NCBI GenBank assembly: GCA_035480235.1
Contig: DATIHX010000005.1
Span: 551-64,550 of the forward strand
Source of the DNA: Candidatus Saccharimonadales bacterium
GTDB lineage: Bacteria > Patescibacteriota > UBA1384 > 2-12-FULL-50-11
Length of the DNA: 64,000 bases
Direction: 5' to 3'
Shown: positions 142 to 38,783 of the stretch, piece by piece
Position numbering within the stretch: the first letter of the stretch is position 1
How the letters are laid out: each line of letters starts with the position of its first letter
Made by a program: the position numbers and the translations under genes
The notes under the pieces: generated by a model
What the model saw: only the letters and a program-made list of their open reading frames with translations
What the model was told of the DNA's origin: nothing
The model's database searches: none

Positions 142-684
142 TTACCCAGCCGCCTTCATGGCCTTGCCTTGTTTCATCCGGATCTGCTCACCCTGGTAGC
201 GGACGCCTTTGCCCTTGTACGGCTCTGGCGGTCGAATGGCTCGGACTTCGGCGGCAAATTGGCCGATCTCCCGTTTGTCGCGGCCAGCCACGTTAATAAC
301 GTTCTTTTCAATTTTGACGGCCAGGCCTTCGGGAATAGCCAAGCGGACGGGGTGAGTGAAGCCGAGCTGGAGAACTAATTCTTCGCCTTCAATGGCGCCG
401 CGGTAACCGATACCAACCAATTCTAATTTCTTGGTAAAACCGTCTTTGGCGCCGGTGACAGCGTTTTGCAATAACGCTCGGACAGTGCCGTGAAGAGCGC
501 GGTAGTGTTTAAGGTCGCTCACCCGGTTCACCAGTAACTGGCCGTCTTTTTCGGTGACGGTAACGCCGTGCGGCAGAGCCACTTTCAGCTCGCCTTGCGG
601 GCCTTTGACGGTTGCTTCAACCGGGCCGAGCTCAACACTGACGCCCTCTAAAATCTTAACTGGCTTGATCCCGATTCTACTCAT
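142..684 (-). CDS. rplF: 50S ribosomal protein L6
   Basis: ORF track 142..723; start moved to ATG 682-684 ([11 protein letters not shown]...) preceded by GAGGAG SD; operon position. Confidence 0.9.
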
Positions 685-790
685 CGCTTTGCTCCTCGGA
701 ATCGGGAAATATCCAATAACCAATAATTAAGTTTTAAAGATTGAATATTATTTGAATATTGATTATTGAGTATTGAAAATTTCATTATAA
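685..790. repeat. AT-rich intercistronic spacer rpsH-rplF; degenerate copy (709-785) of the 116-nt module
   Basis: Shares atatcYaataaccaataattaagttt..aaagattgaatatt...atttgaatattgattattgaRtattgaaRatttc with 1163-1278. Confidence 0.8.
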
Positions 791-1162
791 TTACCAGACC
801 TCACACAATAATTCGCCGCCAACTTTTTGTTTGCGGGCTTGGTTGCCGGTTAAAACGCCTTTGGGGGTGGTTAAAATAACCATACCGAAGCCGGTTTTTG
901 GCCGGGGAATGGCTTGGTACTTAACGTAGCGGCGGATACCGGGCTTGCTGAGGCGTTTAATGTGGTTAAACGGCATATCGGTATTTAAAACGATATCAAG
1001 TTGGGTGCCGTTTTTATCAATGGAGGCGATAAAACCTTCACTTTTCAAAACCGCCGCCATCTCTTCCACCAACTTATTAGAGCGAGCGGTAACGGTTTTT
1101 TTATCGGCCATCGAAGCGTTCCGCAAACGGGTTAAAAAGTCGCTAACGGTGTCGTTATACAT
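791..1162 (-). CDS. rpsH: 30S ribosomal protein S8
   Basis: ORF track; MYNDTVSDFLTRLRNA... typical S8 N-terminus; GGAGG SD 8 nt upstream. Confidence 0.92.
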   Translation of the reverse strand: MYNDTVSDFLTRLRNASMADKKTVTARSNKLVEEMAAVLKSEGFIASIDKNGTQLDIVLNTDMPFNHIKRLSKPGIRRYVKYQAIPRPKTGFGMVILTTPKGVLTGNQARKQKVGGELLCEVW

Positions 1163-1279
1163 ACTTCAATCCTCCGGATTGGAAGCTAATATCTAATAAC
1201 CAATAATTAAGTTTCAAAGATTGAATATTCTTTATTTGAATATTATTTGAATATTGATTATTGAATATTGAAGATTTCT
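1163..1279. repeat. AT-rich intercistronic module, copy 1 (rpsN-rpsH)
   Basis: 116 nt, 4 mismatches to 2343-2458; TGAATATT words, inverted arms, SD hairpin. Confidence 0.9.
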
Positions 1280-1459
1280 TTACCATGAGGCCTTTCTGAC
1301 ACCAGGAATCTCACCCATTTGGGCGCGCTCACGAAAACAGATCCGGCAGATACCGAACTTGCGCAAGTAACCGTGCGGCCGGCCGCACAAAGCGCACCGG
1401 TTGACGGCGCGGGTGGAAAACTTGCTGACGGCCCTGGTTGAGTATCGTTTGCTAGCCAT
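1280..1459 (-). CDS. rpsN: 30S ribosomal protein S14, short Zn-ribbon (type Z) form
   Basis: ORF track 1280..1501; conserved part MASKRY...[23 protein letters not shown]...PGVRKASW with CxxC...CxxC; start set at ATG 1457-1459. Confidence 0.85.
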
Positions 1460-1475
1460 GGTAACAGATTCAAGT

Positions 1476-2015
1476 TTAGCTCTTTTTGAAAGGAAAGCCA
1501 AGGGCCTTAAGAACGACTGCCGAGGCGGCTGGGTTAGAGTTTTTAACAGTAATTGTGACCGACAAGCCGAACGGTTTGTCCATCACGTCGTTGCCGAGTT
1601 CGGGGAAAGAGACTTGGTCTTTAAAACCGATCGTTAAGTTACCTTGTTTATCGAACTGCGTCTGCTCGATGCCGCGGAATTCCCGAATGCGGGGCAGCGT
1701 AACGTTAATCAGTCGATTTAAGAAGTCGGTCATTTTGCTACCGCGGAGCGTCACGCGCATGCCCACCAAATCGCCGGTGCGGAGTTTAAAGCCGGCGATG
1801 GCTTTGCGAGCATGGGTCATCACCGGCTTTTGGCCGGCAATTGCGGTTAACGATTGCTCGATGTAGCTAATCATTTCTTTGTTGGTTTTGTGAACGCCGA
1901 GGCCAACGTTAAGGCTAACTTTTTGGAGTTTTGGCAGAGCGTTAACATTTTTAATACTAAGCTCACTTTGCAGGGCCGCTACATTTTTCAAATAAAGTTC
2001 TTTAGTGTCGTACAT
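1476..2015 (-). CDS. rplE: 50S ribosomal protein L5
   Basis: ORF track; operon position between rplX and rpsN; L5-like sequence. Confidence 0.9.
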
Positions 2016-2341
2016 TATTTACCTTCCTTAGTAATAATCGGCTCTTTTGAGACCTTACTAATGCGTACTTTTTCTTGGCCGTTAACCCGAAACCCAACGC
2101 GCGTCGGTTTGTTACTAGCCGGGTCCAGTAACATGACGTTACTGATTTGCAGCGGCAAAGATTTGTCGATAATACCGCCCTGTGGGTTCTGTTGTGAGCG
2201 CTTGAGGTGTTTTTTAACCATATTCAGACCACTAACGATAACTTTACCGTCTTTGGCAAAAACCCGTTCAATGACGCCGGTTTTGTTGCGGTCGCGGCCG
2301 GTAATTACTAAAACTTTGTCGCCTTTTTTCAGTTTAGCCAT
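2015..2341 (-). CDS. rplX: 50S ribosomal protein L24
   Basis: ORF track 2015..2344 (first codon GTG); ATG 2339-2341 gives MAKLKKGDKVLVITGRDRNKTG, KOW motif; stop overlaps rplE start (TAATG). Confidence 0.9.
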   Translation of the reverse strand: MAKLKKGDKVLVITGRDRNKTGVIERVFAKDGKVIVSGLNMVKKHLKRSQQNPQGGIIDKSLPLQISNVMLLDPASNKPTRVGFRVNGQEKVRISKVSKEPIITKEGK

Positions 2342-2459
2342 CACTTCAATCCTCCGGATTGGAAGCTAATATCTAATAACCAATAATCAAGTTTCAAAGA
2401 TTGAATATTCTTTATTTGAATATTATTTGAATATTGATTATTAAGTATTGAAAATTTCG
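2342..2459. repeat. AT-rich intercistronic module, copy 2 (rplN-rplX)
   Basis: Ungapped alignment to 1163-1278 (offset 1180). Confidence 0.9.
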
Positions 2460-2828
2460 TCATAAGACATCCTTTGCTAAAGAAATAATTTTAGTGAAGC
2501 CTTTATCGCGCAGTTCCCGGGCGACGGGGCCAAAAATCCGGGTGCCTCGCGGCGTTCCGTCTGGGTTAATGACCACAGCGGCGTTGTCGTCGAAACGAAT
2601 GGTTGAGCCGTCAGCCCGGCGGCAGGGTTTGGTTTGGCGAACAATCACCGCTCGAACAACTTCGTGAGCTTTAACGTTAGCCCGGGGGATGGCGGTTTTA
2701 ACGGAAGCCACAACGATATCGCCGATCTCGGCGTCGTCGAAACGGCCCTGTTTGACAACCTTAATAACGCCTAGCGAACGAGCGCCAGAGTTATCGGCCA
2801 CGACCAGGCGAGTTAGAAGTTGAACCAT
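2460..2828 (-). CDS. rplN: 50S ribosomal protein L14
   Basis: ORF track 2460..2831 (first codon TTG); ATG 2826-2828 gives [16 protein letters not shown], classic L14. Confidence 0.92.
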
Positions 2829-2907
2829 CAACGATTTCCTCCGGAAATCGCAATATCCAATAACCGATAACTAAGTTTCAAGTATTGAGTATTGAGTATT
2901 GAGTATT
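2829..2907. repeat. AT-rich intercistronic spacer rpsQ-rplN with 7-nt tandem words
   Basis: agtattg x3 plus a variant at 2881-2908 facing ccaataaccgataac; SD hairpin 2832-2850. Confidence 0.85.
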
Positions 2908-3150
2908 TCATTTTGTTTTCTCAATTCGTTTCGTAATCTCCCAGCGTTTGTGACGGCTGAGCGGTTTGGTTTCAGCGATCTCAACTGTTTCGCCCATTTT
3001 GTACTCGTTATTTGGGTTTTGGGCCATAAATTTCCGGTGGCGTTGAAAGCGTTTCTTTAAGATTGGGTGAATGCGCCATAGCGATACCGCCACCACGGCC
3101 GTGTTGGTCATTTTGTCGGACACAATGATGCCGAGCTGAGTTTTACGCAT
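2908..3150 (-). CDS. rpsQ: 30S ribosomal protein S17
   Basis: ORF track; operon position, S17-like OB-fold sequence. Confidence 0.88.
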   Translation of the reverse strand: MRKTQLGIIVSDKMTNTAVVAVSLWRIHPILKKRFQRHRKFMAQNPNNEYKMGETVEIAETKPLSRHKRWEITKRIEKTK

Positions 3151-3373
3151 GAGTTTTTTCTTGAATTTGAGCGGTGACTTTTTCGTCCAAAATTGTTTTC
3201 AAGCGAGCGATGGTCTTTTTCAACTCGCCGATTTCTTTCGGGTTCTTTAGTTTGCCCAGTAATTTATCTTGGCGAAGAACCGTTAATTTCTTTTGGGCTT
3301 CTGTAATTCTACCAGAAATCTGGTTCAGCGGTAAGCCCTTGATCTCGCGCAGCTGCTCTAAACGTTTTGCCAT
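3143..3373 (-). CDS. rpmC: 50S ribosomal protein L29
   Basis: ORF track; helical 76 aa between rplP and rpsQ; overlaps rpsQ start. Confidence 0.85.
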   Translation of the reverse strand: MAKRLEQLREIKGLPLNQISGRITEAQKKLTVLRQDKLLGKLKNPKEIGELKKTIARLKTILDEKVTAQIQEKTHA

Positions 3374-3374
3374 T

Positions 3375-3788
3375 TTATCGGCTCTCCACTTTCACGAATT
3401 TGGTTTTGACAGGCAGTTTGTGAGCAGCCAAGCGCATCGCTTCGGCAGCGGTCGCTTCGTCGACGCCGGCCATCTCAAAAAGGATGGTGCCAGGTTTAAC
3501 AACAGCCACAAAGTGGTCGAGCGCGCCCTTACCGCCGCCCATGCCCACTTCAGCGGGTTTACCGGTGACGGGTTTATGCGGGAAAATTCGGACCCAAATT
3601 TTACCGCCACGTTTAATGTAGCGGGTCATCGCTCGGCGAGCGGCTTCGATCTGGCGGCTGGTGAGCCACGCCCGATCCATAGCTTTCAGGCCAAAGTCGC
3701 CAAAACTGACCGAAGCGCCGCGGGTAGCGATACCGGAAAACGTCCCCTTAGAGACTTTGCGATGTTTGAGTTTCTTGGGCAACAACAT
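3375..3788 (-). CDS. rplP: 50S ribosomal protein L16
   Basis: ORF track; [11 protein letters not shown]... and RMGGGKG-type motif (GMGGGKGA). Confidence 0.92.
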
Positions 3789-4444
3789 TATTCAGTCTCC
3801 TCGCGGTCGGTAAACAGGCCGCGGTTAATCCAGACTTTAACGCCAACAACGCCGTAGGTGGTTTGGGCGTGATAAATGCTGTAGTCGATATCGAATTTGA
3901 AGCGAGAAAGCGGGATTGAGCCGTCTTGGAATTTTTCGGTTCGGGCGATCTCGGCGCCGTTCAAGCGGCCGGAAACGATAATTTTAATCCCTTGGGCTTT
4001 GCTGGCCATCGATTTTTCGATCGACTGTTTGCAGGCGCGGCGGTACGGAATGCGGCGTTCGATCTGGTTACCGATGTTTTGAGCGACGAGTGAAGCCGAG
4101 ATTTCGGGATGGCGGTCTTCCAAAATCTCCAATCGGACGACCGGCTGGCCGGTTGGGTAGAATTTCTTTTGGAGTTGGTCTTTCAGAAGATTAATCCCCT
4201 GCCCGCCGCGGCCGATCACTAAGCCGGGTTTGCTGGTGGTAATTTTAACAGTGATTTTGCCCTGGGAACGAACAATTTCCACATCACGAACGCCAGCGTT
4301 ATTGAGCTGTTTTTTAATAAAATCGCGAATTTTGAAGTCGGTAATTAAGTAATTGCGGAACTCACTGTTGCGGGCGAACCACTTACTCTGCCAGTTGGCA
4401 GTAATGCTCATCCGGTTACTAATCGGGTTAATCTTCTGACCCAT
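3788..4444 (-). CDS. rpsC: 30S ribosomal protein S3
   Basis: ORF track; MGQKINPI..., KH-domain GRGG motif. Confidence 0.92.
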
Positions 4445-4583
4445 CAGGCAATCCTCCGGATTGAAATACTAAATTCGAAATTCGAAATCCCAAACAAATT
4501 AAAATTATTCAATGACCAAATGTTTGAAACATTGGAATTTCGGTAATTAGTTATTGTTTGGTTTTTGGGTGATTGGGATTTCA
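4445..4583. repeat. AT-rich intercistronic hairpin spacer rplV-rpsC
   Basis: aaattcg/aaatccc words 4471-4491 face tttggtttttgggtgattgggattt; 34-nt identity with 6176-6209. Confidence 0.85.
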
Positions 4584-4973
4584 TTATTTTGTTTCCTTTT
4601 TGGTGGTACGGACTTTAGCTGCTGGTTTGGCTTTAACTTTTGGGGCTTCGTCGCTGACCGTCACGTTTAAGTGAGCGATGTGTTTAAGGTAAGCGTTCGA
4701 ACGACCACGGGAGTTCGGGCGCATCCGTTTAATTTTTGGGCCTTCAGTGGCCATAATAGCGCTGATCGTCGCCTTCTCGGCGCCGAGTTCCTTCTGCTCG
4801 GCGGCGGCTTTGGCCATCAAGAGAGCTTGATGCAAATAGCGGGCCGAATCTTGGCTCATCACGGCTGTTTGATTGAGGGCAGTTTCCAAGTTTTTACCCA
4901 CTAAAAGACGGCCGACTGGGCGGAGTTTCTTAGCGGAGTGGCGCAAATAACGGAGTTTAACAGTGACTTGCAT
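4584..4973 (-). CDS. rplV: 50S ribosomal protein L22 (Lys/Ala-rich C-terminal tail)
   Basis: ORF track; operon position and L22-like core. Confidence 0.88.
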   Translation of the reverse strand: MQVTVKLRYLRHSAKKLRPVGRLLVGKNLETALNQTAVMSQDSARYLHQALLMAKAAAEQKELGAEKATISAIMATEGPKIKRMRPNSRGRSNAYLKHIAHLNVTVSDEAPKVKAKPAAKVRTTKKETK

Positions 4974-5263
4974 TACTTCTTATCTCCAACGGCTTGTTCT
5001 TTAGCCATCTTACCGCCGTGGCCTTTAAATTTGCGGGTTGGGGCGAATTCACCGAGGCGATGACCGACCATTTCTTCAACGACGGTTACTGGCAGGTGAG
5101 TTTTGCCGTTATGAACGCCAAAAGTGAAACCGACCATCTCGGGGAAGATCGTGCTGGCCCGAGACCACGTTTTCACGACGGTGCGGCTGCCGGCCGGCAG
5201 GCCTTCGATCTTCTTCAGTAATTTTGGGTCGGCCCAAGGGCCTTTTTTGAGTGATCGTGACAT
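4973..5263 (-). CDS. rpsS: 30S ribosomal protein S19
   Basis: ORF track; [10 protein letters not shown]..., [11 protein letters not shown] motif. Confidence 0.92.
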
Positions 5264-6102
5264 TACTTGCTCTTTCTCCGGGTAACAATATATTTAGTGG
5301 TTCGTTTGTTGCGGCGCGTTCGGTAACCGAGGGCTGGTTTACCCCACGGCGTTTTCGGATGTTTCAAACCGATCGAGTTAACCGCTTCACCGCCGCCGTG
5401 TGGGTGATCAATTGGGTTCATCGCTTTACCGCGAACGGTTGGCCGCCAGCCCATGTGGCGTTTCCGGCCAGCTTTGGCGATCCGGATACGGTTGTGGGTG
5501 GTGTTAGAAACCTGACCGACCGATGCCATACATTCTAACAGAACCTTCCGGATTTCTGAAGAAGCCAGCTTAATGTAAGCGTATTTGCCTTCTTTGGCGG
5601 TTAAGGTGGCGGCCGAACCAGCCGAACGAACCATCTGGCCGCCGCGGCCCGGTTGCAGCTCGACGTTATGGACTTGGTAACCAACGGGGATGTCGGCGAG
5701 CTTTAAGCGCGAGCCAAGGCCGTAGCTGCGTTTAAGTCCAGAAGTAACTTTGTCGCCCACTTTCAGGCCTTCGGGCGCTAAAATGTAGGTTTTTTGCGGC
5801 TGATCGTTAGTACTAGGGCGCTCGAGCAAGGCGATGAAAGCGCTGCGGTTTGGGTCGTATTCAAGAGCAGTGACAGTCGCTTCCCCTTCAAAGGGCAGGA
5901 ATTTAAAGTCGATCACCCGGAATAAACGCTTGGCGCCGCCGCCGCGATGGCGAACGGAAATCGAACCGCTGTCGTCGCGACCGGCGTGTTTGCGCAGTTT
6001 AATAGTTAAAGATTTTTCCGGGCGCTTTTTGGTGAGCGTGCCAAAGTCGCCGTAGGTTAAATGACGGATGGCGGGGCTAGTTGGTTTAACGGCACGGGGC
6101 AT
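5263..6102 (-). CDS. rplB: 50S ribosomal protein L2
   Basis: ORF track 5263..6105 (first codon TTG); ATG 6100-6102; [11 protein letters not shown] motif. Confidence 0.93.
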
Positions 6103-6205
6103 CAAGCAATCCTCCGGATTGAAAAACCAATTTCAAAATCCCAAATCCCAAACATATTGAAAATTTGGTAATTGATTATTGTTTGGTTTTTGGGTGATTG
6201 GGATT
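6103..6205. repeat. AT-rich intercistronic hairpin spacer rplW-rplB
   Basis: Same right arm and SD hairpin as 4445-4583. Confidence 0.85.
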
Positions 6206-6517
6206 TCATGTATTTTTTTCCTTCTTTTTGTCGTCTTTTTCGGTTAAACTCTCGAAACCGGGGATTTTTTGTTTGGGCGGCAACTGAACGTAAGCTTTAC
6301 GGATTTGAGCCCGAACACCTGGGCGGCGTTTAAAGTTAACTTTTTTGGCCGGCAAATTGACGATCCGGACCGAGAGCGGTGTGACAGCGTAGAGCTGGTG
6401 AAGCTCTTTGGTGACGGTGGTTTTGTTAGCATCTTTTTCGATCAAAAAGACATACAAACCTTTGTCGATGGCGGCGGCCGATTTCTCTGTTAAATACGGT
6501 TGGATAACACGGTTCAT
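6206..6517 (-). CDS. rplW: 50S ribosomal protein L23
   Basis: ORF track; operon position between rplD and rplB. Confidence 0.88.
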   Translation of the reverse strand: MNRVIQPYLTEKSAAAIDKGLYVFLIEKDANKTTVTKELHQLYAVTPLSVRIVNLPAKKVNFKRRPGVRAQIRKAYVQLPPKQKIPGFESLTEKDDKKKEKNT

Positions 6518-7721: not shown

Positions 7722-7775
7722 TAAATTTAATAGATAGTATGTCGCACCCCAACGTATAGCTGAACATGCTTAATT

Positions 7776-7804
7776 ATTATGCATTAATCGGGTTCAAGAG
7801 TCAA
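7776..7804 (-). promoter_or_regulatory. promoter-like TTGACT-17-CATAAT upstream of rplC
   Basis: Hexamers and spacing read on the minus strand. Confidence 0.55.
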
Positions 7805-7823
7805 GATCGGATTCGGGTCCGCC

Positions 7824-8339
7824 CTACTTTAATAACTCACCGAATTGTTTTTTAACTTTGTCGAGTTTGGGGTTGATGACAATTTGGCAGTACGGTTCGC
7901 GACTATGGTTAGAAAAGTAGTCACGATGGTAATTTTCGGCCAGGTAAAAGTGGTCAAGCGGCTGAACCTTGGTGACAACGGAATTGCCATCTTGATTGGA
8001 AGCATTAATTTCCACGATAAACTTTTCAGCTGCCGTTTTTTGCTCCTCAGTCGTGTATAAAACTAACGATCGGTACTGCGGGCCGACGTCAGCACCTTGG
8101 CGGTTAAGGGTAGTTGGGTCGTGAGTGGCGAAAAAGACGGTGAGAAGTTTTTCGTAATCAATCTCAGCGGGATCATACTCAATTTTCACCGCTTCGGCGT
8201 GATCGCCAATTGAATGATAATTTGGGTTTGGTGTTATGCCGCCAGCGTAACCAGGTTCAACACTCTTGACGCCTTTCAACATCTTAAAGATGGCTTCGGT
8301 ACACCAGAAACACCCGCCAGCAAAAACCGCTACTGCCAT
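7824..8339 (-). CDS. msrA: peptide-methionine (S)-S-oxide reductase
   Basis: ORF track; AVFAGGCFWCTE active-site motif and GYAGG. Confidence 0.88.
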   Translation of the reverse strand: MAVAVFAGGCFWCTEAIFKMLKGVKSVEPGYAGGITPNPNYHSIGDHAEAVKIEYDPAEIDYEKLLTVFFATHDPTTLNRQGADVGPQYRSLVLYTTEEQKTAAEKFIVEINASNQDGNSVVTKVQPLDHFYLAENYHRDYFSNHSREPYCQIVINPKLDKVKKQFGELLK

Positions 8340-8345
8340 GTTCGT

Positions 8346-8354
8346 ATTGTAACA
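8346..8354 (-). promoter_or_regulatory. extended -10 (TGTTACAAT) 6 nt upstream of the msrA ATG; leaderless candidate
   Basis: No SD; -10 to ATG distance fits a leaderless start. Confidence 0.45.
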
Positions 8355-8471
8355 ACAAATTGCGGTGCTACGATGAGCGTGTTAGGTGCGGAGTTCCGGA
8401 GAGCTCCCAGTTGGCAAAATGGTCCCGGCCGTCTCACCGTTTGAGGCATTCCCCGCCCGCAAGGCGGGGTC

Positions 8472-8870
8472 TTACTCGCTGGTTTTACCTTCGAATTTGT
8501 CGGTTTGGTCGGCTTCGCCTTGGGCTTTCGTGGCGTGGATCACCCGGTCGCGGTGGTTGGGCGGCGAGTAGATTGTGTAAAGCTTGAGTGGTTCAGTGGC
8601 CGAGGTATTGATCACGTTATGGCGGGTTCCGGCCGGCACGATCACCACGTCGCCGTCGCCCACTATTTGTTCCACGCCGTCCAGAACAGTTTTGCCGTCG
8701 CCTTTTTCAAAGCGGAAAAACTGATCAACGGTGTGAACCTCTTCGCCGATCTCTTCATTCGGCAATAAATTCATCAGCACTAATTGGCTGTGCTCGGCGG
8801 TGTAGAGCACCTCGCGAAAATTATTATTTTCCAGCGTCAGGTGTTCGACATTAGCTTTGTAACCCCTCAT
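8472..8870 (-). CDS. cupin-domain protein
   Basis: ORF track; 132 aa with cupin-like GxxxxHxH-type region (EEIGEEVH...) and PAGTRHN motif. Confidence 0.6.
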   Translation of the reverse strand: MRGYKANVEHLTLENNNFREVLYTAEHSQLVLMNLLPNEEIGEEVHTVDQFFRFEKGDGKTVLDGVEQIVGDGDVVIVPAGTRHNVINTSATEPLKLYTIYSPPNHRDRVIHATKAQGEADQTDKFEGKTSE

Positions 8871-8903
8871 CCCTCAACATTAGCACAAATATAACGAAGC
8901 GGG

Positions 8904-8932
8904 TGGAAATGTTCCTCAATTTCCGCTACTAT
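8904..8932 (+). promoter_or_regulatory. promoter-like TGGAAA-17-TACTAT
   Basis: Upstream of ORF 8969-9334. Confidence 0.4.
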
Positions 8933-8968
8933 ACAACCAGCGAAATTGTCGCGGAGGTACTTTTATTT

Positions 8969-9334
8969 ATGGCTATTAGTTCAAAAGACTTAGAAGTTGC
9001 TGCTGGGAATTGCCTACCGGAGCCAACTCCGGAAGCCGCGGCTGCTTTCCGAGCAGCGTTAGTTGGGAGGGGTAATCGACTCCTTGAAGGCAGTAACGCC
9101 GGTAGAACGATTGAGCTTTGTATCAGAGCGTCTGTTGCGATATCTGAAACTTCTCTCTGCCCGGAAGCAACCAACTTTTTACACATTCAGTTGCGTGGTC
9201 GAGAAAATGTTGAACTGCGATCGAAAATGCTTCAGTGGGTGGTTCAAGACGCTGAAGAACCGCCCGGCTATCGCGTTAACCTCACAGAAAATAGCCGATC
9301 GGCAGCGAGACTGCCCGACCGCGTTTCCTCCTAA
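8969..9334 (+). CDS. hypothetical protein (orphan cassette)
   Basis: ORF track 8903..9334; ATG 8969 follows GGAGG (8953-8957); promoter-like TGGAAA-17-TACTAT at 8904-8932 and hairpin terminator 9341-9364; no family recognised; start uncertain (ATG 8909 possible). Confidence 0.45.
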   Translation: MAISSKDLEVAAGNCLPEPTPEAAAAFRAALVGRGNRLLEGSNAGRTIELCIRASVAISETSLCPEATNFLHIQLRGRENVELRSKMLQWVVQDAEEPPGYRVNLTENSRSAARLPDRVSS

Positions 9335-9340
9335 TAACTT

Positions 9341-9364
9341 TCCCGCCTTTGGCGGGATTTCTTT
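9341..9364 (+). terminator. intrinsic terminator-like hairpin
   Basis: tcccgcc ttt ggcggga followed by tttcttt. Confidence 0.6.
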
Positions 9365-10643
9365 AATTGCCGCTGCGGGTATAAATTTTGGCGGCGGCCG
9401 TGAAAGCTGCAACTTGAGTAGGGGTTTGGCCTGGGAAAACTTCAACCTTGAGCGTGTTAGCATCGGTTAATTGGAGTAGGGCGGTGGCCTGTGAAACACC
9501 ATTAGTCGGCATGGTAACGGGGCCGGTTGGTGTACTCATTTGATTCCATTGTTGGCCGTTAGCGTATTGATACTGGCCGCCTTGCAACAGTTCGTACTTA
9601 ACCATGCCCGTGTCAACGCCGATGGTGGCCGGATCGGTGACTAGCGGCTTGATGATGAATTGCTTGGCATCCCCGCCGTTGTAGGCGCCCACCGAGAACC
9701 CCCAAACCGTTGGGTCGATCCAGTCTGGCGTGATTGCTAAATGACCGGCCCAGTAGCTCCCGCTTGGCGGCTTAGTTGGATCGTTATAGCCGCCGCTGCC
9801 TTTGAGAAACCACGAACCAATCAACTTACCAGCCACGTCGTAAGCATAGTAGCCGTCACGCGGTTCGGCTTGACGAGCATAGAACGGCAAAATACTGGTT
9901 TTAACAGCCGCCGAAAAGTAATCGAGCGGCGCGACAGTATGGATTTTCCAGGCTTCGCCGGCGTAGGCCGCTGGCACTAGAAGCTTCGGGTTATTTTTGG
10001 TCATATCCCAGACGGCGAAATCGAGCGACTGGCCGCCCATTTTGGCAATCGCTTGGCCAGCTTTGACCGGAATATTAATATCGGTGTTACCGTTACTGCC
10101 GTGGCCGTTTTGCTCCCAACCCTTGGGCAATTGGGCCTCGATATCCGGCGCCAAAGAAGTCGCTAAATCGAAGTAACTCATAAAGGTACAAGTGTAACTA
10201 ATTGTTACTCGGTAGTCGCCAGCCACGCCGTTGCGGGCGGCATCGTTAGCGCTGTGCGGCCGATACTCGATATCAGCCAAAGTACCGTCGGCTAGCGCCA
10301 GTACATCGCTCGAGTCTTTGACGTTATTTTTGGCCCAGTAGTATTCGTGATCAACGGGGGTGACATGGCCACCGACCGTCAAGCCGTACGGATCGATAAT
10401 ACTGATGTCGGCTGGCTTCATCGGAGCGTAGTTTAGCGCCACAGTGCCAGTGCCCGAACAGTGGTTAGCTGTGAGTTGCTTGCCGGCGGCCACCGCTACT
10501 GAATCTGTTGCGGCAACACTGGCCGGTTGAGGTGAGGTTGAAATTGTTGGGTGTTTAGCGTTTTGACGAGCAACAACAGCGACTATCCCCCCGCCCACTG
10601 CCACAACAACGATCAGCCAAACCCACCACTTTTTCCACCACAT
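9363..10643 (-). CDS. hypothetical membrane-anchored extracytoplasmic protein
   Basis: ORF track 426 aa; N-terminal hydrophobic anchor WWVWLIVVVAVGGGIVAVVA; no family recognised. Confidence 0.65.
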   Translation of the reverse strand: MWWKKWWVWLIVVVAVGGGIVAVVARQNAKHPTISTSPQPASVAATDSVAVAAGKQLTANHCSGTGTVALNYAPMKPADISIIDPYGLTVGGHVTPVDHEYYWAKNNVKDSSDVLALADGTLADIEYRPHSANDAARNGVAGDYRVTISYTCTFMSYFDLATSLAPDIEAQLPKGWEQNGHGSNGNTDINIPVKAGQAIAKMGGQSLDFAVWDMTKNNPKLLVPAAYAGEAWKIHTVAPLDYFSAAVKTSILPFYARQAEPRDGYYAYDVAGKLIGSWFLKGSGGYNDPTKPPSGSYWAGHLAITPDWIDPTVWGFSVGAYNGGDAKQFIIKPLVTDPATIGVDTGMVKYELLQGGQYQYANGQQWNQMSTPTGPVTMPTNGVSQATALLQLTDANTLKVEVFPGQTPTQVAAFTAAAKIYTRSGN

Positions 10644-10681
10644 AGTTTTATGCTGAAGGAAAGTAGAAGGCTGTCAAATAT

Positions 10682-12412
10682 TCAAAGAAATAACCGAACC
10701 GTGCGGATCTCGTCGAAACTATACTCGTTACCCAGGCGTTCACGGGCTTGGGACAAAAACATCTGACCTTCTTTGGCTTTGACGGCCAGCAGTGCCGTTT
10801 TAATCGGTTGGAAACGGTCGGTTTTTGGTTTAAATTTAGCCAAGTCAACCGCCGGCACAATTTTGCCGTCTTCAACGAGTTTTTCCAGATGGCCGATGAT
10901 GGTGCCGAATGTCATACCGCGGTGTTTGGCGATGCCGGAGGGCGTCATTTTTTGGTCGATGAGTAACTCACGAGTAATTTCTTGGGTGGGGATTTTTGGC
11001 ACAGCTTTGGCTGGTTCGGCGCCCGGTCCCCCACCGCAAGCTTTCACAAAATTGGCTTGACGTTTAATTAAAACTGTTGGGTCGAGCGATTGAAGCTGGC
11101 GAACGGCGGTCATCGAGGCTTCACGGAACTTGGCGTCCTCAGCCGAGACTTCCGGGTGAACTTCCAGCGCCCGTTCGTTAAAACCGAGTAAATAGAGGCC
11201 GTCGAGGGTCCGGACTCTGGAGAGCGCCACGTAACCTTGGCCAAATTCGAAGGCTTGGCGCAGGTCCATGACAGCGGCATCCAGCGACATCCCTTGGCTT
11301 TTGTGAACGGTAATCGCCCAGGCTAACCGGAGCGGGAATTGACTGATAGCGGCCAGGACTTTGCCGCCGTCGTCAATCGCCCATTCGGCCGGTTCAGCCA
11401 CAATCACTTTACCGCCGCGGGTTTTAATAATCGGCCAGCTATTGGCTCTGTTAAAGCCGATAATCTCGCCCAAAGTGCCGTTGACGTATTGACGCTCCTG
11501 ATGGTTCTTTGTGAACATTACTTTAGCCCCGACTTTAAGAGTTAAAGTCTCAGGCGAGAGGCAGTTGCGTTTGAGGCTATCGATCAACGGTGGCGCGCCG
11601 CGGCTATTCATAGCAAACGATTTGGAAATAGTTGTTAATTTGCCAAGTTCGGTTTCGTTGAGCTGATCAACATTAGCGTTGTGCGGGAACAATTTAGTGA
11701 CAGTGGCGGCCGGCAGGGCGGTGACAATCCGAGCCGTAAACGTGGCGCGAGCTTCGTTAGTTAATTCATTCCGGCGAATAGCGTTGAGGGCACCGAGAAA
11801 AGCCAAGTCGTCTTGACGGTGCTGCTCCAGCAAGTAACAAACGGTGGGGTCGAGCTCCTTCCAGGCCGGCGAAGCGAAGGCGAAAAGGCTGGTGACTTCG
11901 TCGCCAAAGAGGCTTTGTTCCGTTGATTCCTGAGATTGCACCGGCCGGCGAGTGACCGGTGGCAGCTGGAAGAAATCGCCGACTAAAACCACCTGCAAAC
12001 CGCCGAACGGTTGGTTGCCTTGAGTAGAACCGGGCACCTTGGAGGTGCGAACGGCCCGGCAAACCCGTTCTACCGTGGTGAAAGTTTCAGCTGAGAGCAT
12101 AGAAATTTCGTCGATAATTAAGACCTTGGTTTTTTTGATACGGTTAGCAACGCGGCTGTTGGTTACGATATTGGCCAGTTCAGATTTGGTAAGGGTACTT
12201 TTAATGCCGATACCGCTCCAGGAGTGAATGGTCAGCCCGCCGATGTGGGTGGCGGCGATGCCGGTGGAAGCGGTGATCGCCGGTTCGACACCGTTGGAAC
12301 GTAAATATTTGACGTATTCGTTAATAGTATACGTCTTGCCGCTGCCCGGTTCACCCGTTAAAAAGACGTTGTTGCCAGTTTTCAAGATTTCTAAGGCTTC
12401 TTTTTGGGTCAT
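10682..12412 (-). CDS. PIF1/RecD-like superfamily-1 DNA helicase with C-terminal helix-turn-helix
   Basis: ORF track 576 aa; Walker A GEPGSGKTY, Walker B LIIDEISM, VGDFFQLPPV and TVHKSQG motifs typical of the PIF1/RecD clade; C-terminal HTH-like segment (MTPSGIAKHRGMTFGTIIGHLEKL). Confidence 0.8.
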   Translation of the reverse strand: MTQKEALEILKTGNNVFLTGEPGSGKTYTINEYVKYLRSNGVEPAITASTGIAATHIGGLTIHSWSGIGIKSTLTKSELANIVTNSRVANRIKKTKVLIIDEISMLSAETFTTVERVCRAVRTSKVPGSTQGNQPFGGLQVVLVGDFFQLPPVTRRPVQSQESTEQSLFGDEVTSLFAFASPAWKELDPTVCYLLEQHRQDDLAFLGALNAIRRNELTNEARATFTARIVTALPAATVTKLFPHNANVDQLNETELGKLTTISKSFAMNSRGAPPLIDSLKRNCLSPETLTLKVGAKVMFTKNHQERQYVNGTLGEIIGFNRANSWPIIKTRGGKVIVAEPAEWAIDDGGKVLAAISQFPLRLAWAITVHKSQGMSLDAAVMDLRQAFEFGQGYVALSRVRTLDGLYLLGFNERALEVHPEVSAEDAKFREASMTAVRQLQSLDPTVLIKRQANFVKACGGGPGAEPAKAVPKIPTQEITRELLIDQKMTPSGIAKHRGMTFGTIIGHLEKLVEDGKIVPAVDLAKFKPKTDRFQPIKTALLAVKAKEGQMFLSQARERLGNEYSFDEIRTVRLFL

Positions 12413-12555
12413 GCATAGCCGAGCGTAGCAATAATTTCTTGTTCGGGAAACTTTCGGCTTACTGAAAATTTACGATGAGTCCTGGAATTTCATCCAAAAC
12501 TTGATTATACTTTCTTCACTGCGCAAGCAGAATTTCCTGAAGAGGCACTTTAACA

Positions 12556-13191
12556 ATGAACGAAATTAGAATTTTTCCTGCGAATGACGGTTCTCTAGGA
12601 CTTCCCTCCTCACAATCTTTGGCTGCTTTGACTCGCGAAGGTCAATTGATATTTCCAATGACTACTCACAGCCTCGAGCAATCGATCGCTACATTCGCCC
12701 TACTGCCCGATGATTTTGAACTTCGTCTGGAAAGTGGACACTTTATTTCCACGGGCAATCTCCGGCGACAACTCCGTGACGCTCAGAGGCGTGAACTGGG
12801 AAGCAACATTTTCGGCTACACTGGCAATATTCTCTATATGGATGCTGGGCCCAACGGCGACGAAAAAGCGGAAATTTGGCCATTCCTCCGCTTATCGTTT
12901 GATTACGGCGTTCAGGTGGTGGTGCAATCCATGTTTGAGCGAAATTACTATCCTTACCGAATTCAGCTGAGATCGGTGGAAGTTGAGGGCAAAACCCTCA
13001 AAATCAAACTCCAATGTTGCACTCCCTTAGGGAATTGCGAGCTAATTCTCACCACCTATCCTGATATCTACCCACATCGGATTCGCGAAGCAGTCCGTAG
13101 TTACGCTTCACCGAGCGTGACATTTGGGACACAGCAATTCACCTTTTCTCCAGATGGTAATCGGCTCAGCTGCGAGCAGGTTCCTCGATAG
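12556..13191 (+). CDS. hypothetical protein (orphan cassette)
   Basis: ORF track 211 aa; followed by clean terminator 13199-13221; weak SD; no family recognised. Confidence 0.5.
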   Translation: MNEIRIFPANDGSLGLPSSQSLAALTREGQLIFPMTTHSLEQSIATFALLPDDFELRLESGHFISTGNLRRQLRDAQRRELGSNIFGYTGNILYMDAGPNGDEKAEIWPFLRLSFDYGVQVVVQSMFERNYYPYRIQLRSVEVEGKTLKIKLQCCTPLGNCELILTTYPDIYPHRIREAVRSYASPSVTFGTQQFTFSPDGNRLSCEQVPR

Positions 13192-13198
13192 CATTTTC

Positions 13199-13221
13199 TC
13201 CGCCGCAAGGCGGATTTTTTT
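13199..13221 (+). terminator. intrinsic terminator
   Basis: tccgcc gcaa ggcgga + T7. Confidence 0.75.
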
Positions 13222-13294
13222 ATCTTTTCCTGGGTTATTACAAAAAGTCCAAGCTTTCACCTGGAACTTTTTGTGCTTAACTTGAGAGTTCTTG

Positions 13295-13630
13295 TTACGT
13301 CTTGATTTCAATATCCACACCAGCTGGCAGATCGAGGTTCATCAACGCATCCAAGGTTTTAGGATTTGGGTCTAAAACATCGATGATTCGTTTGTGAACG
13401 CGGATTTCGAACTGTTCGCGGGCGTCTTTGTGGACGAACGTCGAACGGTTAACGGTGACCAAACTCTTCTCGGTTGGCAGCGGGATCGGGCCGGCGGTGA
13501 CGGCGCCAGTTCGCTCAGCGGCTTCCATGATTTTCTTAGCGCTTCGGTCGATCACTCGGTAATCGTAGGCTTTCAGCTTGATGCGGATGATCTGTTTAGC
13601 AGTGTCACGAGCGGTTTTTGGTGTGGCCAT
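13295..13630 (-). CDS. rpsJ: 30S ribosomal protein S10
   Basis: ORF track; IRIKLKAYD...GPIPLPT motif; follows tuf. Confidence 0.92.
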
Positions 13631-13684
13631 TCAATTAGTTTTCAATTTTCAGTTATCAGTTTTCAAGTAAGGTGCAAATACTGA
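13631..13684. repeat. AT-rich spacer tuf-rpsJ with 4 x 7-nt phased words
   Basis: agttttc aattttc agttatc agttttc at 13637-13664; no SD before rpsJ. Confidence 0.75.
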
Positions 13685-17708: not shown

Positions 17709-17889
17709 TTTTCTTTAATAAAAAGATAATTAATGGCACTGCAATGGCTAAGGTTACTATTGCAATCACAATAGACCCGACACTAAGTCCAGCAAAAGCG
17801 ACTGACATTTGAAATAGTAATATTCCAACGAATAATTCTACAATAACGACAATACTAACTAACAACTTAAAGATTCCAGGGACTTTCAT
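17698..17889 (-). CDS. putative small two-helix membrane protein between rpsG and fusA
   Basis: ORF track 17698..17913; ATG 17887-17889 lies 1 nt after the rpsG stop, and the stop overlaps the fusA start by 11 nt; two hydrophobic stretches; AT-rich, so an open frame by chance is possible. Confidence 0.4.
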
Positions 17890-18364: not shown

Positions 18365-18459
18365 TAGACTGCGCTCCCGCTCGAATTACTGAATTTTCGA
18401 ATTACTGAATTACTGAATTGATTTAGTAATTTAGTAATTAAGTTATTTAGTAATTCCAT
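18365..18459. repeat. AT-rich spacer rpsL-rpsG built from nine phased 8-nt words
   Basis: 18383-18454: gaattact-type x5 then ttagtaat-type x4; the two halves are imperfect reverse complements. Confidence 0.85.
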
Positions 18460-29985: not shown

Positions 29986-30026
29986 TTATTCGTAATTCTT
30001 AATTCGTTATTCTTAATTCTTTGCCG
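29986..30026. repeat. AT-rich spacer with 14-nt tandem repeat
   Basis: Minus-strand sense gaattaagaataac gaattaagaattac gaataa then ATG. Confidence 0.7.

Positions 30027-36758: not shown

Positions 36759-38783
<2,025 letters not shown>

Follow-up and report, generated by a model that had tools for sequence, protein, structure and literature searches.

In the window, by which we mean the whole stretch of 64,000 nt of DNA analysed, from an uncultured Patescibacterium, the minus strand carries a ribosomal-protein operon in which the S14 and S8 genes, and likewise the L14 and L24 genes (all assigned through Pfam, as an earlier sequence-only reading of this DNA had named them), are separated by spacers of 117 and 118 nt, respectively. 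That reading had described a 116-nt repeat filling both gaps, which description stood up well: the copies at 1163–1278 and 2343–2458 occupy all but 1–2 nt of the spacers, align without gaps, and differ at exactly four positions (1208, T/C; 1263, G/A; 1265, A/G; 1273, G/A), their identity breaking off abruptly at both ends. The word TGAATATT, said to occur three to four times per copy, is present four times in the former and three times in the latter, with 15 occurrences in the window versus 1.75 expected, and both copies have a GC content of 23.3%, versus 50.3% in the window. The list of abutting or overlapping junctions drawn up for the remainder of the operon was likewise correct, so that long spacers are not the default there.

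The near identity of the two copies had been attributed either to recent copying or gene conversion or to strong constraint. Recent copying is supported by their divergence of 3.4%, as compared to the ~45% of third codon positions at which orthologous genes differ in the nearest syntenic genome; whereas strong constraint on a conserved spacer does not agree with the relatives, where the same junctions mostly measure 0–6 nt. The two near-identical copies are the latest copying or conversion event in the repeat family that we designate A.

Repeat families and modules of the same build

A diverged copy that the sequence-only reading had placed at 709–785 proved genuine, the S8–L6 spacer (junctions are named from the upstream to the downstream gene) extending from 685 to 790. 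All three copies listed were thus real, but the total was too low: family A comprises four copies (S8–L6, S14–S8, L14–L24, and S17–L14), to which are to be added the two copies of a family B (L22–S3 and L23–L2) and five non-homologous modules of the same build (S12–S7, gyrB–gyrA, gyrA–infB, hyp505–obg, and SecY–next gene). The family A copy at 2829–2907, family B (4445–4583 and 6103–6205), and the same-build modules elsewhere in the window had been omitted. Our census, covering ~74 kb of one MAG, contains 11 modules; those with listed coordinates, together with two spacers of related composition, are as follows, "relay ORF" denoting the bridging open reading frame treated in the next section.

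1163–1279, minus strand: family A, S14–S8 spacer; 97% identical to 2343–2458; period-7 words; hairpin z = −2.4
2342–2459, minus strand: family A, L14–L24 spacer; 97% identical to the S14–S8 copy; hairpin z = −2.7
685–790, minus strand: family A, S8–L6 spacer, diverged; nhmmer E = 3e-28; 15-nt and 3-nt in-frame deletions
2829–2907, minus strand: family A, S17–L14 spacer, short; nhmmer E = 3e-21
4445–4583, minus strand: family B, L22–S3 spacer; one 33-nt indel relative to the other B copy
6103–6205, minus strand: family B, L23–L2 spacer; repeat homologous to the L22–S3 copy
18364–18459, minus strand: S12–S7 module; 8-nt word arrays; hairpin z = −4.1; 31-codon relay ORF
33845–34003, minus strand: gyrA–infB module; 52-codon relay ORF
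36627–36758, minus strand: gyrB–gyrA module; GAAAUCC arrays; hairpin z = −3.8; 42-codon relay ORF
27950–28090, minus strand: hyp505–obg module; same-style hairpin, z = −3.7; without relay ORF
13631–13684, minus strand: EF-Tu–S10 spacer; direct-only heptamer array YUGAWAA ×4 reaching the start codon
29986–30026, minus strand: YbbR-like–p126 spacer; direct-only heptamer array AAGAAUU ×5 reaching the start codon

The modules are AT-rich (GC ~23–34%, versus 50% in the window) and are built of 7-nt words in two complementary arrays, which arrangement yields an imperfect hairpin with predicted stems of 22–51 pairs. The words are CAAUAUU and UUAUUGG in family A, AAUCCC and AUUUCGA in family B; the S17–L14 module contains a perfect (AATACTC)×4 array, and TRF detected period-7 arrays in every ribosomal module as well as the direct arrays at 13639–13666 and 29988–30021. 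The EF-Tu–S10 array, which lacks both an SD and a relay ORF, includes among its units the only occurrence of TAACTGA, while the published words CCCCAGT, TTGGTCA, and CAACAGT are not those of families A and B. The sense strand is in general rich in A+C. Every module separates two genes of a housekeeping operon that share a strand, none being located in a divergent or convergent spacer, and the four plus two copies of families A and B are all contained within 5.5 kb. In the genome, family B, the gyrA–infB module, and that before obg were matched only marginally by the family A nhmmer profile (E of 0.003–0.03), which matches could reflect a shared composition and not homology.

A GGAGG precedes the start codon in six ribosomal-operon modules; and in five of these, as in the SecY–next gene module, that motif is enclosed in a small covarying hairpin, of which we found three stem variants with compensatory changes (−5 to −10.5 kcal/mol). 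TCCGGAGGA occurs five times, exclusively within modules, versus 0.49 expected. The hairpins located were:

1167–1181, minus strand: CAAUCC-GGA-GGAUUG before the S8 start, at 7–8 nt; −5.9 kcal/mol
2347–2361, minus strand: CAAUCC-GGA-GGAUUG before the L24 start
2832–2850, minus strand: CGAUUUCC-GGA-GGAAAUCG before the L14 start; compensatory stem variant, with stem pairs changed on both sides; −10.5 kcal/mol
4449–4463, minus strand: CAAUCC-GGA-GGAUUG before the S3 start
6107–6121, minus strand: CAAUCC-GGA-GGAUUG before the L2 start

Bridging reading frames

The sequence-only reading had treated these modules as untranslated spacers and had overlooked that 10 of the 11 contain, on the sense strand, an ORF of 27–52 codons that bridges them from end to end. 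Each such relay ORF starts between −4 and +8 of the upstream stop, where the typical arrangement is ATGA or TAATG, and stops between −2 and +5 of the downstream start, mostly as TGATG. For each junction we calculated as P the chance that a dinucleotide-shuffled spacer would bridge, which values ranged from 0.001 to 0.12. In the ribosomal-protein operon the ORFs are:

1155–1286, minus strand: S14–S8, 43 codons; ATG 4 nt before the S14 stop, stop 5 nt into S8; P = 0.041
2341–2463, minus strand: L14–L24, 40 codons; ATGA with the L14 stop, TGATG with the L24 start; P = 0.035
681–785, minus strand: S8–L6, 34 codons; ATG 8 nt from the first base of the S8 stop codon (5 nt past that codon), stop overlapping the L6 start (ATGA); P = 0.016
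2828–2911, minus strand: S17–L14, 27 codons; ATGA with the S17 stop, TGATG with the L14 start; P = 0.059
4444–4584, minus strand: L22–S3, 46 codons; TAATG with the L22 stop, TGATG with the S3 start; P = 0.0095
6102–6209, minus strand: L23–L2, 35 codons; ATGA with the L23 stop, TGATG with the L2 start; P = 0.12

Elsewhere, the S12–S7 ORF (31 codons; P = 0.001) begins with an ATG immediately after the TAA and ends in TAATG, the gyrA–infB ORF (52 codons; P = 0.027) begins with an ATGA overlap and stops 5 nt into infB, and the gyrB–gyrA ORF (42 codons; P = 0.001) has its ATG at +6 and ends in a TAATG overlap. Taken over six unrelated families, the product of the bridging probabilities amounts to ~1e-11; copies of one family (four in A, two in B) do not count as independent observations. 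In each module exactly one of the three sense frames is open and no antisense frame is; flipped spacers never bridge; and among the five unrelated families in the window, all 38 stop triplets fall outside the relay frame. The ordinary co-directional spacers taken as a control contained no bridging ORF. The sole module without a relay ORF, hyp505–obg, is followed by a TATAAT box, which is separated by 6 nt from the ATG of obg. An ORF at S7–EF-G, counted as a module at first, was subsequently excluded; it resembles a small membrane protein.

The indels that distinguish the module copies measure 15, 3, 18, 3, and 33 nt, all of them multiples of three despite the 7-nt words. The frame is conserved, but the peptide is not: the pN/pS of the relay ORFs is 0.5–0.9, all four differences between the near-identical copies alter the peptide, and the peptides are of low complexity, unrelated between families, and without a Pfam match or a homologue in 5.8 billion proteins. 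The L14–L24 ORF, which the NCBI record annotates as a gene of 40 aa, found only itself in that search. Synonymous changes in the last sense codons of L14 (CTC in the relative L101, TTA here) and S14 (TCG in L101, TCA here) create the relay ATG. Because comparable spacers with heptamer hairpins from other phyla (L005, L031, and L037) have no bridging ORFs, such an ORF is not intrinsic to hairpins of this type.

The same junctions in related genomes

The syntenic relatives L101 and L102 have 0–6 nt at L23–L2, L22–S3, S17–L14, L14–L24, and S8–L6; among these, the S17–L14 spacer is of 1–5 nt, and the two sites of family B measure 0–5 nt (L22–S3) and 0 nt (L23–L2). At S14–S8, L102 has 2 nt, and L101 an unrelated spacer of ~66 nt. 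In L101 the L14 TGA directly adjoins the L24 ATG, with 0 nt between, and the S8–L6 junction reads TGA ATAATA ATGAGT; in L107 the TAA of S12 and the ATG of S7 are likewise contiguous (0 nt). In relatives with empty sites the upstream gene contains the SD within its own 3′ end. Since related genomes have 0–6 nt at the same junctions, the modules are insertions and not conserved regulators; at least ten such lineage-specific hairpins lie between closely spaced essential genes.

In the filled S8–L6 site ATGA is present at both flanks, the old ATG being kept at its old spacing, and the filled S12–S7 site shows a direct repeat of ATG, with TAA ATG at one end and ATG at the other. Clear target-site duplications are limited to these two sites (ATGA and ATG, respectively); at the others only TGA or ATG triplets recur, which recurrence would also result from selection for overlapping signals. 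At S12–S7, the module of the relative L106 shares its 3′ end and its bridging frame with the one described here, although the interior is different, which speaks for persistence across species. In L107, the spacer between the hypothetical gene and obg is of 32 nt with the same TATAAT-N7-ATG as here, and the EF-Tu–S10 spacer is of 24 nt without the heptamer array.

The search for further copies proposed in the sequence-only reading was rewarded inside the genome, where family A had additional members, but not in the relatives, among which the nhmmer profile of that family found no match. Outside this genome, pattern scans and profile and protein searches gave no copy of family A. The organism itself is represented in SRR9179560, in which a contig of 1,740 nt matches at 100% identity. 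A pattern scan with the family's core CTTRRTTATYGGTTATTRGATATT, which is too low in complexity for a good probe, returned 12 metagenome-contig and six viral-contig matches; all proved to be unrelated low-complexity (GGTTATT)n arrays in GC-rich contigs and phages, and accordingly provide no outside copy. A blastn search of the module against plasmids gave one weak 63-nt match that was not significant. As to copying machinery, no transposase or other candidate was seen in the 74 kb, of which the window proteins were scanned; no partner IS was found, and no Y1 transposase was among the proteins scanned.

Persistence of the modules and competing explanations

We propose that the 116-nt module, rather than being a conserved regulatory spacer, is a lineage-specific insertion element, or relay mini-cistron, and that elements of this kind are selfish or neutral insertions that persist because the mini-cistron preserves translational coupling; to which proposal we assign a probability of roughly 0.6. 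The ancestral junctions were tight (0–6 nt), with a downstream gene that relied on termination–reinitiation coupling and on an SD contained in the final part of its upstream neighbour; every module occupies precisely such a junction, at or adjoining the downstream start codon. The AT-rich unit of roughly complementary 7-nt word arrays changes by slippage and has been copied from one junction to others nearby within the operon. The 27–52-codon ORF opens with an AUG that lies at the upstream stop or overlaps it, passes through the hairpin and the module's GGAGG, and closes where its stop codon overlaps the genuine start of the next gene, mostly as TGATG. With an AUG in that position and a single open frame, ribosomes leaving the upstream cistron would translate across the insert and thus probably be handed on to the next gene, since the ORF spans the distance from one stop to the next start; in passing they would melt both the long hairpin and the small one that hides the SD, and then reinitiate. 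In this way the coupling would be kept, together with the stoichiometry and feedback of the whole operon. A spacing of ~20 nt nearly abolishes termination–reinitiation coupling (PMC10666635). The sequences show the insertions, the bridging frame with its statistics, the in-frame indels, the lack of peptide conservation, and the covarying SD hairpin; from them we infer translation of the relay ORFs, selection for coupling, and the mode of copying. Of the ideas in the sequence-only reading, re-initiation came closest, but as a translational and not a transcriptional event. Several observations speak against our proposal: the copies of a family are clustered locally instead of being dispersed; clear target-site duplications are confined to two sites, and no copying machinery was seen in the 74 kb; the bridging ORF is absent from the similar hairpin spacers of other phyla; the copies within families A and B are not independent of one another; and the modules have their own GGAGG at a good spacing, so that independent initiation could suffice and the ORF would then be unnecessary.

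A first alternative, implied by the processing or attenuation envisaged in the sequence-only reading, is that the AU-rich hairpin is itself the functional part—as an RNase III-type processing site, a stabiliser, or an attenuator—and the ORF incidental. REP/BIME, ERIC, and Correia elements and the T7 intercistronic RNase III sites are precedents; the modules are confined to co-transcribed junctions; and several fold better on the sense strand than their shuffles (z = −2.4, −2.7, −4.1, −3.8, and −3.0). The six ribosomal modules, however, range from +0.1 to −2.7, with four of them between +0.1 and −1.9, so that sense-strand folding surpasses the shuffles only modestly; for 11 of 12 modules the complementary strand folds at least as well; G–U wobbles on the transcript strand are not enriched, their mild bias being opposite to that of selection at the RNA level; and covariation was found in the small SD hairpin only. 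Rfam 15 gave no match in the whole window at the gathering score nor in 600–6300 at E ≤ 1, and a scan for tRNA and tmRNA found nothing. None of the modules has a terminator-like site on the gene strand, for which reason the terminator or attenuator reading was rejected. Canonical terminators do occur elsewhere, one of them at 38763–38835, downstream of the gene ending at 38836 and between that gene and gyrB. Moreover, close relatives lack the modules, and a functional hairpin would leave unexplained the single open frame, its overlapping start and stop, and the indels in multiples of three. We consider this explanation unlikely.

Rather unlikely too, in our estimation, is that slippage or template switching simply inflated the spacers with neutral simple-sequence DNA, a new SD driving downstream translation and the open frame being a by-product. 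Period-7 arrays do dominate the modules, similar arrays without ORFs exist in unrelated phyla, and the A+C-richness of the sense strand is general; heptamers, furthermore, are the commonest class of long bacterial simple-sequence repeats and are sporadic in distribution, according to what PMC4679880 cites from Mrazek (2007). Yet shuffles preserving dinucleotides seldom bridge, the sole open frame of the three is always the one by which the overlapping start and stop are connected, and indels come in multiples of three and not of seven. The family A copies at four junctions are homologous, and must therefore have been copied and not grown in place.

The 7-nt words might instead be bound by a protein with affinity for single-stranded nucleic acid (a cold-shock protein, S1, or CsrA) that would tune the translation of the next gene, which possibility we hold to be improbable. 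It would suit the heptamer arrays directly before start codons, some without an SD (13631–13684 and 29986–30026), the ATTGG/CCAAT words in the hairpin arms, and the GGA displayed in the loop of the SD hairpin, which we take to resemble a CsrA site. A protein-binding role has been proposed for the TAACTGA repeats of the Beggiatoaceae (PMC4679880) and for Nostoc (10.1101/2022.06.06.494920). Nevertheless, the words differ between families (CAAUAUU, AAUCCC, GAAAUCC, and AAUUACU), and so a single binder is unlikely; the arrays are absent from relatives, and the bridging ORF would be left unexplained.

Two further explanations have a very low probability. The first is an internal promoter, TTGAAA-18-GATATT, that would restart transcription from family A with a short leader beginning with the SD hairpin. 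It is present on the gene strand in three A copies, fits 9 of 12 positions, and has both hexamers in mostly conserved columns of the alignment; but promoter-like matches are not enriched in the region (14 versus 8.8 ± 3.0 expected), on which ground we rejected it as the main explanation, and it is weaker than the TTGACT-17-CATAAT before L3 (10 of 12), absent from the S8–L6 copy and from family B, and silent about the ORF. The second, that functional peptides were duplicated within the operon as genuine small-protein genes, can cite ORFs of 27–52 codons beginning ATG-AAA downstream from an SD-like sequence, one of them annotated in the public record, but was rejected on the pN/pS, the non-synonymous differences of the young copies, and the orphan, low-complexity, family-specific peptides, the DNA-level palindrome and 7-nt words sufficing to account for the sequence.

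Known systems and significance

Returning to the relay mini-cistron, we regard the mycobacterial MIRU as the closest known analogue. As far as the work of Supply et al. (1997) is summarised in PMC3184786 and PMC12548453, MIRUs insert at start codons and have an internal ORF coupled to the downstream gene. Both are short repeats (tens to ~100 bp) within operons, co-oriented with co-directional genes, and occupy sites that in related genomes are vacant; and in both a small internal ORF overlaps the upstream stop and the downstream start, which overlap is read as keeping the coupling and rendering the insertion harmless. To judge from composition and organisation, the two nonetheless have no sequence relationship. 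The modules are AT-rich in a genome of 50% GC, whereas MIRUs are GC-rich; they consist of 7-nt words forming a long hairpin, and most of those in the ribosomal operon have their own GGAGG, usually in a small hairpin; their usual downstream overlap is TGATG (1 nt) instead of ATGA (4 nt); each site has a single unit and no tandem VNTR, only the 7-nt words being repeated in tandem; copies of one family lie within ~2 kb; and their host is a Patescibacterium, with sites in its ribosomal-protein, gyrase, and secY operons.

The cyanobacterial STRR, the TAACTGA repeats of the Beggiatoaceae (MacGregor, 2015; PMC4679880), and other long simple-sequence repeats are similarly composed of tandem 7-nt words in intergenic DNA, including that of ribosomal-protein operons; they often stop just short of a start codon (by a few nt), in many cases with no SD, and are sporadic across lineages; the EF-Tu–S10 array here even includes TAACTGA. 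The modules differ in pairing an array with its complement as a hairpin, in being copied as units of 80–140 nt, and in having one frame open, which three properties are not described for STRR or TAACTGA arrays. Analogous arrays in Chloroflexi, Abditibacteriaceae, and another Patescibacterium, unlike the modules, have no bridging ORF.

With MITE-like repeats (Rickettsia palindromic elements, Correia/NEMIS, ERIC, and Neisseria REP2) the modules share the character of small, non-autonomous, co-transcribed palindromes with long hairpins. Rickettsia palindromic elements also persist by staying in frame, but by fusing into the host protein and not as a separate mini-cistron; the Neisseria REP2 carries an RBS and an ATG (PMC3184786). 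The modules, in contrast, are low-copy and local instead of dispersed (within 74 kb), have clear target duplications at two sites, and lack clear terminal inverted repeats apart from the hairpin, whose arms could serve as such. REP/BIME elements are GC-rich imperfect palindromes of 20–40 nt with a conserved head tetranucleotide and a RAYT gene, whereas the modules are AT-rich, of 80–140 nt, and without a GTAG-type head.

That the act of translation matters and not its product is a principle shared with delivery or relay uORFs and with translated but dispensable cistrons, such as comEB–comEC and bicistronic design elements: there, translation of a short upstream ORF that stops at the following start codon both drives downstream expression and clears inhibitory structure (PMC12548453; 10.1101/2020.12.30.424838). 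Those, however, are single cases, evolved or engineered, while in this genome a family of inserted repeats shows the arrangement again and again, at many junctions.

A wider proposition, doubtful though we think it, is that Patescibacteria carry an undescribed class of self-propagating relay-cistron elements that target the start codons of coupled essential genes, bring their own SD masked in a hairpin, and survive only by being translated. If true, the MIRU strategy would have been invented a second time, independently, on a chassis of heptamer-array hairpins; that hairpin would serve for propagation, in the form of single-stranded DNA from the non-coding strand; and the heptamer repeats beside start codons in cyanobacteria, Beggiatoaceae, and other phyla could be products of the same process that have decayed or were left unbridged.

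A single unbridged insertion at a junction of coupled, essential ribosomal-protein genes should break translational coupling, and the finding points to a route by which a compact genome may absorb insertions of 80–140 nt there. Should the relay reading be true, this would be a second, phylogenetically remote case of the MIRU principle of a repeat made harmless by an internal ORF, recognisable from sequence by one open frame, ATGA or TGATG at both ends, and indels of multiples of three in 7-nt repeats; the poorly understood intergenic heptamer repeats would become linked to translation; "spacers" and 40-aa "hypothetical proteins" of this kind in CPR genomes would be neither regulatory RNAs nor real proteins; and the modules would offer natural parts for insulating cistrons while coupling is kept.

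Modules in the ribosomal operon and elsewhere

The window, whose nearest species representatives by L14 are Berkelbacteria- and Saccharibacteria-labelled Patescibacteria, has a GC content of 50% and carries in its first 8 kb, on the minus strand, the genes L3-L4-L23-L2-S19-L22-S3-L16-L29-S17-L14-L24-L5-S14-S8-L6. The sequence-only reading had reported here a 116-nt AT-rich spacer occurring twice along with a shorter third copy, an observation that we confirmed and widened. The two long copies align without gaps, mismatch only at 1208, 1263, 1265, and 1273, lose identity sharply at both edges, have a GC content of 23%, and occupy the spacers S14>S8 (117 nt) and L14>L24 (118 nt), where X>Y denotes a junction with gene X upstream of gene Y. 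The third copy is real, and the TGAATATT words are strongly enriched (15 observed versus 1.75 expected). That reading had missed a fourth copy of the same family (A) as well as a second family (B), so that the ribosomal modules are the following:

685-790 (-), S8>L6 spacer, third copy of family A
1163-1278 (-), S14>S8, family A
2343-2458 (-), L14>L24, family A
2829-2907 (-), S17>L14, fourth copy of family A
4445-4583 (-), L22>S3, family B
6103-6205 (-), L23>L2, family B

AT-rich modules of similar style are found elsewhere in the window at S12>S7, gyrB>gyrA, gyrA>infB, and hyp>obg, and one more lies just beyond its edge, between SecY and the next gene. Within a family the copies are close to one another in the operon, an arrangement suggestive of short-range copying or gene conversion and not of dispersal.

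According to Tandem Repeats Finder, the modules are composed of period-7 words (period-8 at S12>S7) such as UCAAUAA/CAAUAUU, AAUACUC (x4), AUUUCGA, UUUGGGA, and GAAAUCC, with the 5'-proximal array being roughly complementary to the 3'-proximal one, giving an imperfect hairpin of 22-51 predicted pairs. Compared with dinucleotide shuffles, folding varied from module to module (sense-strand z from +0.1 to -4.1), the values being -2.4, -2.7, +0.1, -1.9, -0.9, and -1.0 for the six ribosomal modules and -4.1, -3.8, -3.7, -3.0, and -1.1 for the remaining ones. Because folding of the complementary strand was at least as good in 11 of 12 modules, the conserved property looks like a DNA-level palindrome and not a tuned mRNA structure. 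In addition, five of the ribosomal modules, and that of SecY, have a small 3'-terminal hairpin (-5 to -10.5 kcal/mol) in which the SD has its GGA in the loop and the next GG paired, and whose stem exists in three versions differing through compensatory changes: CAAUCC-GGA-GGAUUG (at four junctions), CGAUUUCC-GGA-GGAAAUCG, and CCAAACC-GGA-GGUUUGG. Many other genes of the window have no obvious SD.

The GC and AT skews track gene orientation on both halves of the window (sense strand C>G and A>T), and the modules show the same skew as the sense strand, the 5' arm being G-poor and the 3' arm G/U-rich. S10 does not adjoin L3: it comes after EF-Tu, at 13295-13630, and the gap of about 5.5 kb between the two (7722-13294) holds genes for a Pif1-like helicase, a cupin, and PMSR along with unknown genes; among the promoter-like matches of the region, that of L3 ranks best (TTGACT-17-CATAAT, 7776-7804, -).

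Junctions in relatives and the insertion of the modules

Through S8 and S7 homologues we obtained four syntenic loci from related genomes:

L101, GCA_034680565.1, S8 89% identical
L102, S8 76% identical
L106, S7 93% identical
L107, GCA_964463625.1, S7 83% identical

The spacers at L23>L2, L22>S3, S17>L14, L14>L24, and S8>L6 measure 0-6 nt in both L101 and L102, that at S14>S8 measures 2 nt in L102, and in L107 the ATG at S12>S7 directly follows the TAA, its EF-Tu>S10 and hyp>obg spacers being 24 and 32 nt long. A downstream gene in these relatives has its SD embedded in the final codons of the gene before it (e.g., aaggagactaagTAAatg), and no heptamer arrays were found in the 19-20 kb covered per locus in L101, L102, and L107. 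To judge from these sequences the modules are insertions, and the strong constraint that had been proposed was not upheld for a regulatory spacer, L101 and L102 having no counterpart at these ribosomal junctions; searches with family A, which covered relatives, metagenome and viral contigs, and plasmids, likewise located no copy elsewhere. The other explanation offered, recent copying, held: the two long A copies are 96.6% identical, versus a third-codon-position identity of about 55% between the window and L101, from which we infer that the latest copying or conversion event took place long after the species had separated.

The S8>L6 site retains its old spacer and ATG, with ATGA on either side of the unit, and at S12>S7 the unit is placed after the old TAA ATG, so that both sites fit a start-codon insertion. 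At the remaining junctions there is no more than a recurrence of TGA or ATG triplets, a pattern that selection for overlaps would equally yield.

A reading frame across the modules

In every hairpin module located at a co-translated junction there is one sense-strand ORF, hereafter the relay ORF, whose ATG lies at or overlaps the upstream stop and whose stop overlaps the downstream start.

Relay ORFs: offset of the ATG from the first base of the upstream stop, offset of the stop from the first base of the downstream start, and length.
S8>L6: +8, +1, 34 codons
S14>S8: -4, +5, 43 codons
L14>L24: -1, -2, 40 codons
S17>L14: -1, -2, 27 codons
L22>S3: +2, -2, 46 codons
L23>L2: -1, -2, 35 codons
S12>S7: +3, -2, 31 codons
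gyrA>infB: -1, +5, 52 codons
gyrB>gyrA: +6, -2, 42 codons
SecY>next gene: -1, -2, 50 codons

The junction motifs, ATGA or TAATG in front and mostly TGATG behind, are classical coupling overlaps. Every module has exactly one open frame out of three in the sense direction and none in antisense; a dinucleotide-shuffled spacer would bridge with a probability of 0.001-0.12 per junction, which amounts to a joint chance of about 1e-11 as the product of the weakest value per family over six unrelated families. Bridging was never obtained with reverse-complemented spacers, nor was a bridging ORF found in ordinary co-directional spacers of the same genome. The sole module without a relay ORF is that of hyp>obg, a 141-nt hairpin module immediately upstream of a TATAAT box located 6 nt ahead of the obg ATG (27949-27970, -); because the box is kept in L107 (990-1010), obg probably has its own promoter and would not need coupling. 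That spacing, 6-7 nt across the two genomes, also suggests a leaderless transcript.

Indels among the A copies (15, 3, 18, and 3 nt) and between the B copies (33 nt) are all multiples of three, whereas slippage of a 7-nt word would step by 7 nt. The relay ORFs have a pN/pS of 0.5-0.9, and each of the four mismatches that separate the two young A copies alters the peptide. The relay peptides are of low complexity and unrelated across families; that of family A had no homologue but itself among 5.8 billion proteins, and those scanned had no significant Pfam match. Such substitutions and gaps indicate that the frame is maintained and the peptide is not. L106 has an S12>S7 module too, with an interior unlike that of the window (AGUUUCC x3.7), a similar 3' end, and again a bridging ORF (offsets +2/-2). 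With respect to L101, relay ATGs arise from synonymous last-codon changes (L14 CTC to TTA, S14 TCG to TCA).

The window S17 (2908-3150, -; 80 aa) is without the Lys-rich C-terminal tail of 13-15 residues found in both relatives (L101 8219-8500, L102 8290-8577), and its TGA falls within the ATGA at which the relay ORF begins; the insertion at S17>L14 may have replaced that tail. L101 has at S14>S8 (9935-10000) an unrelated insert of its own, of about 60 nt and normal GC, directly past the S8 start codon and bordered by the direct repeats ATGTATAC/ATGTATAAC; its 22-codon ORF begins at the old ATG and reaches a TAA 5 nt into S8, the bridging logic being shared and the insert different. At L2>S19 (6186-6239) the same locus has a 54-nt spacer resembling a duplicated L2 3' end, in which a 13-codon remnant ORF (MIQRIIINRRKSK) stops at the old stop, 1 nt upstream of the S19 start. 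Finally, a small ORF bridges S7>EF-G in three genomes (window 17698-17889, -, 63 aa; L106 4826-5105, 93 aa; L107 10313-10507, 64 aa), with no recognisable similarity among the three; that of the window is strongly hydrophobic and resembles a two-helix membrane peptide, and the ORF may encode a small membrane protein that evolves fast, or else be an older relay ORF.

Known repeats and the proposed relay

Descriptively, the relay modules belong with the intergenic heptamer repeats, among which are the cyanobacterial STRR. Heptamer repeats have also been reported ahead of start codons as well as within ribosomal operons of Beggiatoaceae (TAACTGA; PMC4679880) and near start codons in Nostoc (10.1101/2022.06.06.494920). 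Surveying 80 L14 loci with Tandem Repeats Finder, we found paired complementary arrays in ribosomal operons, namely in a cyanobacterium (Chamaesiphon, L040, 10 arrays) and, yielding long hairpins on folding, in the following:

L037, Chloroflexi MAG: 700-774, 1469-1522, 4671-4757
L031, Abditibacteriaceae MAG, S17>L14: 2157-2222, with an SD after the hairpin
L005, another Patescibacterium: 3520-3612, 5057-5141

Bridging ORFs were absent from the arrays checked in these three loci. The window also has two direct-only arrays that reach a start codon without SD, hairpin, or relay ORF, one before S10 (13631-13684, -; YUGAWAA x4, including one TAACTGA) and one before the gene of a 126-aa protein (29986-30026, -; AAGAAUU x5). 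Non-coding arrays of the type (GGTTATT)n then (GCATTGCGTTC)n occur in GC-rich phage and metagenome contigs (L095-L100, from IMG/VR, and L083-L094), of which L086 and L087 form a long hairpin from TTGGNNA heptamers and their complement.

Termination-reinitiation coupling requires an overlap or a very short distance and is nearly abolished at a spacing of about 20 nt (PMC10666635); therefore, an insert of 80-140 nt in a junction of 0-6 nt should uncouple the downstream essential gene, parted also from its embedded SD. The module would offer two remedies: a fresh GGAGG 8-10 nt ahead of the start, and a single frame left open, so that ribosomes leaving the upstream gene would translate across the insert, opening both hairpins on the way and terminating at the start codon that follows, with the masked SD tying downstream initiation to ribosome passage. 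To this relay mechanism, which we propose on sequence grounds, we assign a probability of about 0.6.

The nearest known kind is the mycobacterial MIRU. Two sources (PMC3184786; PMC12548453 citing Supply 1997) describe MIRUs as intercistronic repeats whose sites may be filled or empty and whose ORF ends overlap the flanking genes, and the latter, a 2025 review, describes insertion at start codons with an internal ORF coupled downstream, which minimises the impact of the insertion. The relay modules share this coupling-preserving internal-ORF logic, but differ in sequence, composition, and hairpin-plus-heptamer architecture, in having their own SD and a single-unit organisation, and in their host. 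Most likely they constitute a family of MIRU-like relay-cistron insertions, a variant of that kind.
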